Shown one piece after another: positions 23,522 through 24,856 of a stretch of 64,000 nt of DNA. The DNA is taken from the NCBI GenBank assembly GCA_021773195.1, contig JAJFKN010000020.1:7570-71569 (forward strand), read 5' to 3'. A model generated the notes under the pieces. That model was not told the origin of the DNA. It saw only the letters and a list, made by a program, of their open reading frames with translations, and made no database searches. The DNA is from Gammaproteobacteria bacterium. GTDB lineage: Bacteria > Pseudomonadota > Gammaproteobacteria > JAKBBU01. Made by a program: the position numbers and the translations under genes. Within the stretch, counting starts at the first letter, position 1. Each line of letters begins with the position of its first letter.

Positions 23522-24856
23522 ATGGTCACACATAATGAGCTCCTTGCTATCCTTAGCCAATATGAAGAGCCTGTTTCTTTTGGAGAGTTGAAGTGCAAGC
23601 TTGGAGAAAAGATCCCTGATAGAACCTTGCGCTTTTGGTTACAAAAGTTAGCTGCAGAAGGATCTGTGGTTGCCACAGGTGAAAATAAGGGAAGACGTTA
23701 TCAGTTAGCCACTGCAATGCAAACTATGAGTCCCGCTAGGCAGGCATTATTTTCGCTAGAGAGTTTGGCTATCTTGCAAAAAGTTCAGCGCCCCATTTTT
23801 CAGCGAGATCCCTGTTGTTATAATGAATCTTGGCTTAAGGCCTATATACCTAACAAAAGTTTTTATTTAACACCGGTCCAACGGAAACTTTTATCTGAAA
23901 ATAGTATTTTGATGCTTGAAGAAAAAAGTGCTGATACTTATACAAAAAAAATATTTAACCAGCTTCTCATCGATTTATCCTATAATTCTTCACGATTAGA
24001 AGGTAATACTTATTCGTTACTGGAAACTCAACAGTTACTCATAGAGGGTAAAACGCCTCCAGAAAAATTAGATGCAGAAAAACTAATGATCCTTAACCAT
24101 AAGGAAGCCATTAAATTTTTGGTGGAAGGTATACATCGGATTCATCTAGATGTGGCCAGTATTCAGTCTATGCATTACTTATTGGCTGATGGTCTTGTCT
24201 TATCAGAAAGTGCTGGGCAAGTTCGTGATGAAGCGGTGCGGACTTCTTTAACTACCTATGTTCCCATGGAAGGAAGAGAGCGCTTGATGGGAATGTTAAT
24301 ATTAATTGCGGAGAAAGCAAATAAAATTAAAGATTATTTCGAGCAGAGTTTCTTTCTGTTGGTTAATCTTTCTTACTTACAGGCTTTTGTAGATGTGAAT
24401 AAGCGCACAGCTAGACTCTGTTCCAATATACCTTTAGTAAAAAACAATCTAACGCCATTATCATTTAATGACATAGATAAAGATGACTATATTTCATGTC
24501 TTCTTGCGATTTATGAATATAATGAAACAGCGCCTCTAGCAGATTTATATGTTTGGTCTTATTTAAGATCCTGCAAACAATATCAAGCCATCAGTGAATC
24601 TATCGGTATCGACTTATTTCATGTTCGCTATCGACAACTAAAACGCAGGCTGATTGCAGAGATTATTCAGGGGAAATTGTCCGGGGATCAGATGCACGAG
24701 TTCATAGAGAATTCAGCAAAATCTGATGTGCCACTGGAGGACCAAGAAGCGTTCATTCTTAGTATGATAAAGGATCTAAAAGACCTAGAAGAGTTCAAAA
24801 TTCTAGGTATGGGGATTTCGCGCAAAGCCTTTCTTGAATGGAAAAATCTACGCTAA
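23522..24856 (+). CDS. Fic/Doc-family protein with N-terminal wHTH and a degenerate active-site motif
   Basis: Inhibitory-helix-like SSRLEGN. Fic core reads QAFVDVNKRTARL where the HPFx(D/E)GNGRxxR consensus is expected (His, Pro and both Gly replaced). N-terminal wHTH. Confidence 0.7.
   Translation: MVTHNELLAILSQYEEPVSFGELKCKLGEKIPDRTLRFWLQKLAAEGSVVATGENKGRRYQLATAMQTMSPARQALFSLESLAILQKVQRPIFQRDPCCYNESWLKAYIPNKSFYLTPVQRKLLSENSILMLEEKSADTYTKKIFNQLLIDLSYNSSRLEGNTYSLLETQQLLIEGKTPPEKLDAEKLMILNHKEAIKFLVEGIHRIHLDVASIQSMHYLLADGLVLSESAGQVRDEAVRTSLTTYVPMEGRERLMGMLILIAEKANKIKDYFEQSFFLLVNLSYLQAFVDVNKRTARLCSNIPLVKNNLTPLSFNDIDKDDYISCLLAIYEYNETAPLADLYVWSYLRSCKQYQAISESIGIDLFHVRYRQLKRRLIAEIIQGKLSGDQMHEFIENSAKSDVPLEDQEAFILSMIKDLKDLEEFKILGMGISRKAFLEWKNLR

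Follow-up and report, generated by a model that had tools for sequence, protein, structure and literature searches.

A conserved glutamine replaces the catalytic histidine in a large family of winged-helix Fic proteins with repeat arrays at their own promoters

The window analyzed here is a stretch of 64,000 nucleotides from a Gammaproteobacteria bacterium genome (GenBank assembly GCA_021773195.1, contig JAJFKN010000020.1, positions 7,570 to 71,569 of the forward strand), and coordinates below are counted from its first letter. Analysis of its open reading frames (ORFs) gave an ATG-start ORF at 23522..24856 on the forward strand, encoding a protein of 444 amino acids (aa) with an N-terminal winged helix-turn-helix (wHTH) and a Fic core in which Gln287 aligns at motif position 1, the place of the canonical catalytic His. 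Judged from the alignments described below, this odd active site is the conserved design of a large family, which we named wHTH-Fic(Gln), and not that of a broken enzyme. The 143-nt intergenic region upstream of the Fic(Gln) gene contains four exact same-strand copies of TTGCCGATA[AT]AT (23418-23501), with no other exact copy in the 64-kb window. No ORF was found in these 143 nt, and a leader RNA element was rejected since there was no Rfam match in the window. The features of the promoter region and the gene are as follows.

23418..23429, forward strand: putative operator repeat copy 1, TTGCCGATAAAT, exact match
23438..23449, forward strand: putative operator repeat copy 2, TTGCCGATATAT, 20 bp after copy 1 and just upstream of the -35 hexamer
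23452..23479, forward strand: sigma-70-like promoter by consensus match only (10/12 positions), -35 TTGAAT at 23452-57, 16-nt spacer, -10 TATAAT at 23474-79
23459..23470, forward strand: putative operator repeat copy 3, TTGCCGATATAT, within the -35/-10 spacer
23490..23501, forward strand: putative operator repeat copy 4, TTGCCGATATAT, 11 nt downstream of the -10 hexamer, about +5 to +16
23522..24856, forward strand: coding sequence of the wHTH-Fic(Gln) protein, 444 aa, whose stop overlaps the convergent rsmE by 4 nt
23522..23716, forward strand: N-terminal wHTH, about aa 1-65, with recognition helix aa 33-46 (DRTLRFWLQKL) and wing aa 49-62 (tip GENKGRRY)
23750..23926, forward strand: family-specific conserved linker, aa 77-135, with P91, R95, P97, Y100, W104, Y108, P110, N111 and Y115 invariant or near-invariant in the alignment
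23987..24007, forward strand: inhibitory-helix motif S156-S-R-L-E160-G-N in the class II position, aligning with FICD TVAIEGN
24212..24262, forward strand: flap region, aa 231-247, with G232, R235 and Y246 invariant, aligning with the FICD AGRFR flap segment
24380..24415, forward strand: Fic signature motif Q287-A-F-V-D291-V-N293-K294-R295-T-A-R298 (QAFVDVNKRTARL), located by alignment and regular expression
24554..24853, forward strand: C-terminal helical domain, aa 345-444, with conserved D364, R371, G429-x-G431 and W440

Membership of the Fic/Fido superfamily was established by a Pfam Fic match (PF02661, residues 209-303, 31 bits against a 24-bit cut-off, E=4.8e-7). The winged helix gave a weak Pfam HTH_12 match (E=0.0056) and showed helix-helix-helix-strand-strand topology over residues 4-62 of an AlphaFold2 model. 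This model, built on a 25-sequence alignment, had a mean predicted local distance difference test score (pLDDT) of 86.4, with values of 91-97 across aa 81-120 of the linker. In HMMER alignments with human FICD and C. elegans Fic-1, Q287-A-F-V-D-V-N-K-R-T-A-R298 stood opposite H-P-F-x-D-G-N-G-R-T-x-R and S156-SRLEGN opposite the TVAIEGN of the class II inhibitory helix, and the motif region corresponded to the Fic core, column for column with the FICD HPFxDGNGRxxR. The initial annotation, made from the sequence without database searches, had proposed the Fic fold, the N-terminal winged helix, the SSRLEGN inhibitory element and a motif without the catalytic His and both Gly, and all four proposals held. 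A second, canonical motif that it might have missed was searched for with the regular expression H.F.[DE].N.R, and none was present in the 444-aa protein.

The linker (aa 77-135) and the C-terminal domain (aa 345-444) had no counterpart among the matched solved Fic structures. The figures listed with the AlphaFold2 model were 23.9 for FICD, 23.4 for Dde_2494, 22.9 for SoFic, 22.7 for BT_2513, 22.6 for the Mycobacterium marinum Fic protein, 21.2 for 7xux and 19.9 for CbFic2; PDB entry 7xux (380-residue chain, released December 2022) is one that we take to be, probably, the structure of the Yersinia protein CccR discussed below. The DSSP string of the model contained short beta-bridges at residues 98-99 and 246-247, and the conserved R95-x-P-C-x-Y100 segment might, as one rather doubtful possibility, dock on the flap and act as an internal pseudo-substrate. 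Matches to the Fic core (aa 130-341) also included a PADLOC candidate single-gene defence family, PDC-S04 (E=3.8e-14), and a phage family of unassigned function, phrog_11900 (E=2.5e-29), whose members are in both cases Fic-only, shorter and lacking the winged helix. A Pfam scan of the 444-aa protein gave no BID, ankyrin or other delivery domain.

A search of 5.8 billion protein clusters returned >6,000 matches, of which the best 120 were examined in detail. These relatives were full length (98-100% coverage, 433-490 aa, 45-63% identity), and every one (120/120) carried the motif [YW][LI]-Q-x-F-x-D-[VI]-N-K-R-T-x-R, along with the inhibitory segment S-[SA]-R-L-E-G-N-T-Y. When 1.84 billion 50%-identity representatives were searched exhaustively with HMMER, 2,680 clusters matched at E<=1e-3, 415 of them at E<=1e-30, and residues were counted over the 150 best cluster representatives (31-56% identity). 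Gln287 was found in 147 of 149 representatives and His in none, while Phe289 was present in all 149. The Asp/Glu, Asn and two motif Arg residues of canonical AMP-transferases were present and conserved (Asp291 in 141, Asn293 in 147, Arg295 in 136 and Arg298 in 146 of about 148 representatives), as were Lys294 (133 of 151), the latch Glu160 (141/144) and the flap residues Gly232 and Arg235 (150/151 each). The canonical Gly-Asn-Gly anion hole was absent from the window protein, which has Val292-Asn293-Lys294; at position 292 the family has Val in 101 representatives and Gly in 26. The initial annotation had counted the change of Pro to Ala at position 288 as part of a degenerate signature. Ala is indeed the residue of the window protein, but it is a lineage detail, since Pro is the commonest residue there (110/151). 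The description as degenerate has to be dropped, because hundreds of sequence clusters have kept the Gln/Val/Lys substitutions, which indicates that the altered motif is an alternative site under purifying selection and not the product of decay.

In about 15 of the 151 clusters the NKR residues were lost while Gln, Phe and the second Arg were kept. This minority includes the cluster representatives P0128, P0135, P0160, P0193, P0240, P0247, P0264 and P0267, with sequences such as DFNQP, NLNES and DLNNC, and some of these lineages also lack the latch Glu or Gly. The loss of NKR may reflect a secondary loss of ligand binding.

The architecture is that of a class II Fic protein (FICD-like), with an intramolecular Glu latch and a flap, and not that of Doc, because the family profile matched FICD with E=3e-12 and Doc (3k33) with E=0.65, over the motif alone, and the score against NCBIfam DOC_P1 (TIGR01550) was below its cut-off (14.4 bits against 38.65). 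As in the class II proteins FICD/HYPE, C. elegans Fic-1, SoFic, BT_2513 and CbFic2, an (S/T)xxxE(G/N) inhibitory helix precedes the core within one polypeptide, the flap has a GxxR motif, and the motif Asp, Asn and both Arg residues are kept. Unlike them, wHTH-Fic(Gln) has Gln for His and Val-Asn-Lys for the Gly-Asn-Gly anion hole, carries an extra linker (aa 77-135) and a C-terminal helical domain, and is only 13-20% identical; its DNA-binding domain is N-terminal, whereas that of SoFic, CbFic2 and CccR is C-terminal.

Doc of phage P1 has the motif HIFNDANKRTA, and the F-x-D-[AV]-N-K-R-T-A segment, with Lys for the second Gly, is common to Doc and the window protein, whose phosphate loop D-V-N-K-R-T-A resembles the D-A-N-K-R-T-A of Doc. 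Both this resemblance to Doc and the array directly upstream of the gene had been overlooked in the initial annotation. Motif-level matches to Doc were weak (TIGR01550, E=0.032; a PHROG "Doc-like toxin" family, E=0.003), and of the Doc motif HxFx(D/N)(A/G)NKR the window protein has the NKR but Gln at the position of the His. Doc retains its catalytic His, is about 125 aa long, lacks a flap, an intramolecular inhibitory helix and the second motif Arg, and is encoded together with the Phd antitoxin. No Doc-type adjacent antitoxin gene was found as a conserved neighbour in 80 family loci or in the 143 nt upstream in the window, and the 3' end of the Fic(Gln) gene overlaps rsmE. Membership of the Doc family was thus rejected on profile score, fold ranking and architecture. 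In Doc itself, going by the account of Castro-Roa 2013 and Cruz 2014 given in PMC4454073, the Lys is associated with kinase activity and with ATP bound in an inverted orientation.

The Gln variant of the motif is already recorded. In an in silico study without experiments, Khater and Mohanty (2015) placed 45 sequences in a "clade D2 of the Doc subfamily", bacteria-only and usually single-domain, whose consensus they gave as Qx[F|Y]x[D|E][G|V]NKR; from the selection they saw, they argued that function is retained and speculated that the D2 proteins are not dead (PMC4454073). QAFVDVNKR fits this consensus, with its His to Gln change, and we infer solely from the motif that the 2015 sequences are the same proteins as wHTH-Fic(Gln). 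The present family differs from the D2 description in being multi-domain (about 450 aa) with class II architecture and promoter operator arrays, and in being far larger (415 clusters at 50% identity with E<=1e-30). The literature searched, which left most subscription journals outside, contained no experimental work on the family, and neither its fusion to a winged helix nor its operator arrays were described there. Apparently new are the large size of the family, its class II architecture, its winged helix at the N-terminus, and operator arrays that are phased and matched in specificity.

The upstream repeats recur across the family. GGCC-centred k-mers were common upstream of the gene in 81 family loci (for example, AAATGGCCG in 43/81, compared to a maximum of 6 in shuffles), and 76 of the 81 had 2-8 copies (median 4) of a related 9-mer, in the variants TGGCCGATA, TGGCCGTAT, TGGCGGATA, TGTCCGATA, TGTCCGAAT and TGGCCGAAT. 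Neighbouring copies were mostly direct (155 ++ and 14 -- pairs versus 76 mixed), and their spacing peaked at 11, 20-22, 30-31 and 40-42 bp; steps of roughly 10.5 bp put the copies on the same side of the double helix. The words were concentrated upstream of the gene, with 337 copies in 77 upstream windows (about 26 kb) versus 54 in the other 1.11 Mb, a length of DNA in which a random 8-mer should occur about 34 times. Placement relative to the promoter was scored in the 64 loci with a promoter-like hexamer pair. A copy lay inside the -35/-10 spacer in 45 of them (18% by random placement), a copy within 30 nt after the -10 was found in 49 (31% by random placement), and both occurred together in 37 (5% by random placement). 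A more remote clade (34-38% identity), carried by plasmids and a few viral contigs, had the same layout with other words, AATGTCGCGA, TTGCGCGACA, TTATGCGCAA and ATGGCGCGA, and its recognition helices differed as well.

Two further observations were made on the arrays. The database proteins P0025, P0010, P0007, P0058, P0068 and P0073 have N-terminal extensions starting with or repeating "MAD" or "VADK" (alignment columns 1-40), which are apparently operator words (ATGGCCGAT...) translated as coding sequence; the start codons of these six were therefore probably called too far upstream. In Pseudomonas sp. R5(2019) (locus L018, NZ_JAAAMT010000002.1, 7364-9790), a near-identical 100-aa ORF (MTTNHSKTATSTFTTCNGSHDPLF...) stands on both sides of the Fic(Gln) gene, each copy followed by about six TGGCCGAAT repeats; ORF and operator array have here been duplicated together, locally. 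Downstream, on the minus strand, lie ORFs that resemble polymorphic toxins (e.g., ...YCSGDPINFTDSTGFM...; 9962-10504 and 11100-12017).

The repeat word varied together with residues of the winged helix. Words ending in ...GATA went with Arg at wing residue 58 (27/30), and those ending in ...GTAT with Thr (32/34). In the recognition helix, residue 37 was His or Gln with TGGCGGATA only (5/5) and Arg almost everywhere else, residues 35-36 were Ser-Val with TGGCCGTAT (Ser35 25/34, Val36 31/34) and Thr-Leu with TGGCCGATA (Thr35 22/24, Leu36 20/24), and residue 36 was Ile with TGTCC words (5/6). The unique TTGCC word of the window pairs with an equally unique Phe38, where other sequences have Arg or Asn. 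From these pairings, the winged helix probably reads the upstream repeats, and the co-variation offers what may be a small readable recognition code; it is suggestive and not statistical proof, because the word classes largely follow clades. Two paralogues in one metagenome-assembled genome (CAWACC01, Parachlamydiaceae; loci L032 and L049) have the operator words TGGCCGTAT and TGTCCGAAT and differ in recognition-helix and wing residues too, which suggests that they are insulated from each other by their different words.

The family genes were solitary. In the window, ElbB upstream (NF008747, E=6e-95) and RsmE downstream (PF04452 plus PUA domain), the neighbours named in the initial annotation, were both confirmed, and the latter is followed by AhcY and MetK. 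All-against-all clustering of ORFs of at least 70 aa from the 80 loci gave no conserved neighbour gene, and no flanking family was recurrent among 132 flanking genes, which fell into 121 Pfam families, each in three loci or fewer. Mobile-element marks in this set were sporadic (2 integrases, 2 transposases and 2 PIN domains), and no secretion-system gene was a conserved neighbour among the family loci; one plasmid copy adjoins trb genes. Family genes usually have an upstream gap to themselves (median 163 nt). A partner gene or operon was rejected, as nothing recurred in the 80 loci or in the 132-gene Pfam census. In Thiothrix subterranea (CP133197; L003, 6505-8001), a gene for the RNA ligase RtcB is divergent from the Fic(Gln) gene and shares with it a 146-nt intergenic region holding the operators, a one-off among the 80 loci. 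No second cluster of operator words was present on 150 kb of the 151-kb T. subterranea plasmid or on the complete 22-kb pLA6_011, and the sole second cluster seen belongs to the local duplication in L018. When metagenomes were scanned for triple TGGCCGATA arrays, 77 of 80 fetched contigs had no Fic(Gln) gene; these held either unrelated tandem satellites with different periods or, on contigs poor in ORFs, a GTGGCCGATATGGT element. The latter, with 3-6 irregularly spaced copies (...TTTTTGTGGCCGATATGGTTATTCC...TGGCCGATATGGTACAGACCC), occurred in L102, L103, L137, L150, L170 and others, from samples Ga0209339, Ga0209149, Ga0049107 and Ga0056123; it has no connection with the Fic gene, probably derives from repeats in the genome of a eukaryotic host, and dominated the operator scan.

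Relatives were encoded in 434 of 453 pattern matches among 185,579 species-representative genomes. Carriers were Gammaproteobacteria (Thiotrichales, Legionellales, Oleispira, Pseudomonas, Halomonas and Steroidobacteraceae), many Chlamydiota and some Verrucomicrobiota. Full-length copies were carried by 25 plasmids, labelled only as "Fic family protein", with neighbours that include an integrase, a PRTRC system, a ubiquitin-like cluster and type IV secretion system (T4SS) genes. On plasmid pUYM01 of Undibacterium sp. YM2 (L090, 4524-15870), one side of the family member holds a ubiquitin-like, defence-type cluster (WYL, multiubiquitin, ThiF and DUF6527), and the other a site-specific integrase followed by PRTRC system genes. 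A phage origin was rejected, since only 5 of 2.9 million IMG/VR viral contigs had a relative and phage records gave partial Fic-core matches only. The Fic(Gln) gene of the window has a GC content of 0.379, with 0.335 at third codon positions (GC3) versus 0.42-0.49 for its neighbours, and its closest relative (63% identical) lies in a different genomic context. Given this GC3, the variable context and the plasmid copies, the accessory placement proposed in the initial annotation was reasonable. The host genome can be placed only loosely, as a deep Legionellales-like lineage whose GlyS is at most 56% identical to any database entry. Four window ORFs had no Pfam or NCBIfam match: 13834-15390 (518 aa), 19617-20183 (188 aa) and 20896-22182 (428 aa) on the forward strand, and 28243-29097 (284 aa, acidic, low complexity) on the reverse strand.

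We propose, with a probability of roughly 60%, that wHTH-Fic(Gln) is a solitary, self-repressing winged-helix/Fic regulator or effector. The winged helix would very likely bind the four phased TTGCCGATA[AT]AT repeats and repress its own promoter, given that the repeats flank the -35, occupy the -35/-10 spacer and cover the transcription start, and given the comparative evidence of the family arrays. The Fic core, on the strength of its conservation, would probably keep a phosphate/nucleotide pocket (D291, N293, K294, R295 and R298) with a Doc-like "NKR" loop, a target-docking flap and the Glu160 latch, and would bind a phosphate ligand under a permanent Glu latch. Canonical AMPylation, deAMPylation and Doc-type phosphorylation are quite likely impossible for the protein, because Gln287 is invariant where characterized Fic/Doc enzymes have their general-base His. 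Since neither a second operator array nor a partner gene was found, the output of the module would come from the Fic(Gln) domain itself. The last step is the least certain: we favour, rather tentatively, a domain that works as a ligand-gated sensor or binder and is by nature a pseudo-enzyme or "substrate trap", with operator occupancy controlled by a nucleotide, a phospho-ligand or a bound target.

A precedent for the repression comes from CccR, a Fic-HTH protein of Yersinia pseudotuberculosis, which represses its own promoter via repeats at -35/-10 and for which no further binding sites were found before other genes affected by it (PMC9755527). By analogy, the precedent supports repression by wHTH-Fic(Gln), as both proteins combine Fic and DNA-binding domains in one chain and have repeats over their own -35/-10, located here by computation only. 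The two differ in domain order, with the HTH of CccR being C-terminal, and in the operator, which in CccR consists of two 10-bp inverted repeats 26 bp apart and here of a phased array of 3-8 mostly direct repeats. Moreover, CccR has a canonical motif (H192PFGNGNGRTVR), AMPylates FtsZ (PMC9755527), is secreted and is linked to a type VI secretion system locus.

Several points weigh against the proposed regulator. DNA binding is predicted from sequence only, and the promoter hexamers are consensus matches only. The co-variation of word and helix is confounded by phylogeny, and the pairing of Phe38 with TTGCC is a single case. In some lineages the apparent -10 belongs to the repeat word, which inflates the spacer/-10 overlap statistic. 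A distant regulon could still exist, as the approximately 1.35 Mb of carrier DNA covered limits additional arrays to roughly <~7 per 3-Mb genome. The tight conservation of seven pocket residues and the flap fits an enzyme as well as a binder, and a self-only repressor resembles the control circuits of toxic proteins, which favours a catalytic reading.

The three options raised in the initial annotation, a pseudo-enzyme, a binding module or an altered chemistry, remain the right set, and the strongest alternative to the self-repressing regulator is drawn from it. In place of ligand-gated binding, wHTH-Fic(Gln) could be an active enzyme under tight autorepression, using a His-independent chemistry and organized like a fused toxin-antitoxin or defence module; we consider this unlikely. 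The chemistry could be Doc-like gamma-phosphate transfer, transfer to a nucleophile that needs no base (phosphate or carboxylate), or nucleoside triphosphate (NTP) hydrolysis with Gln orienting a water molecule, while the winged helix would act as an antitoxin-type DNA-binding domain keeping expression very low and Glu160 as an intramolecular latch. In its favour, there is hardly any variation in the Asp/Asn/Lys/Arg/Arg pocket, the Glu latch or the flap, the multi-copy operator is confined to the gene itself, as with the toxic CccR, the gene has a low GC content, plasmid copies adjoin integrase, PRTRC system and T4SS genes, and the Fic core weakly matches PADLOC PDC-S04. AvrB, with a Fido fold without the motif, is still catalytic. 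The NKR loop is also Doc-like, and Doc, by the account given in PMC4454073, is a kinase that uses inverted ATP; Khater and Mohanty argued that the Gln variants may retain activity (PMC4454073). Against it, His is required in every characterized Fic/Doc activity and Gln is unable to serve as a general base. The clusters that have lost NKR and keep Gln, Phe and the second Arg are easier to reconcile with a structural or binding role, the flanking genes show no enrichment for defence islands or mobile elements, and the 5 viral-contig matches are few. In its most specific form, which we regard as more doubtful still, Fic(Gln) would be a working enzyme or NTP-driven switch with a chemistry new to the Fic superfamily, in which Gln287 orients water or a nucleophile that can do without a general base in a Doc-like inverted nucleotide pocket, and the whole would be a one-gene, operator-tethered toxin or defence module that a trigger releases or activates.

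The initial annotation had pointed to a translocated effector of an intracellular pathogen. A host-targeting role of this kind, as for AnkX, the Bep proteins and CbFic2, is very improbable. It would suit the many amoeba-associated carriers (Chlamydiota, Legionellales), the Legionellales-like host of the window with its several orphan ORFs, and the fact that the DNA-binding Fic proteins CccR and CbFic2 can be secreted. However, the family and its operator layout are also found in bacteria that live freely (Thiothrix, Halomonas, Pseudomonas, Zooshikella and Oleispira) and on alphaproteobacterial plasmids (rhizobial and Rhodobacterales), the sequence-specific winged helix is matched to repeats in its own bacterial promoter, and secretion-system genes are not conserved neighbours. 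The effector claim has no support here, and the host itself is only loosely placed as Legionellales-like; because the family members examined carry their own promoter-operator array (76/81 loci), action inside the bacterium is the expectation.

Equally improbable is that the upstream repeats are not operators at all and represent replication-origin iterons, a repetitive element or a transcribed RNA motif. Phased direct repeats at about 20-22 bp before a winged-helix protein do resemble plasmid iteron/Rep systems, and triple TGGCCGATA arrays occur in many unrelated metagenome contigs. Nevertheless, the genes are chromosomal, single copy and set among housekeeping genes, the interleaving of repeats with the -35/-10 hexamers is far above chance, the word co-varies with winged-helix residues, the window has no Rfam RNA family, and the metagenome arrays are plain satellites of other periods or the element on ORF-poor contigs. 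Finally, a decayed Fic enzyme, a relic whose catalytic residues were lost by drift, is hardly credible and was rejected: His, Pro and both Gly do differ from the canonical motif in the window sequence, but the same substitutions are fixed in hundreds of clusters from several phyla at 31-63% identity (too diverged to be one element copied recently), the pocket residues around them are conserved in full-length ORFs, and drift would not keep Q-x-F-x-D-V-N-K-R-T-x-R.

The current label "Fic family protein" wrongly implies AMPylation for these genes. Since the binding site is predicted to the base, the promoter arrays offer an immediate experimental handle on the family. Fic enzymology rests on one invariant His, and here is a family spread across phyla that has Gln in its place but has otherwise kept its pocket, along with the target flap and the inhibitory Glu. 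wHTH-Fic(Gln) is thus a natural experiment on what the Fic fold does without its general base, be it sensing, target trapping or new chemistry.

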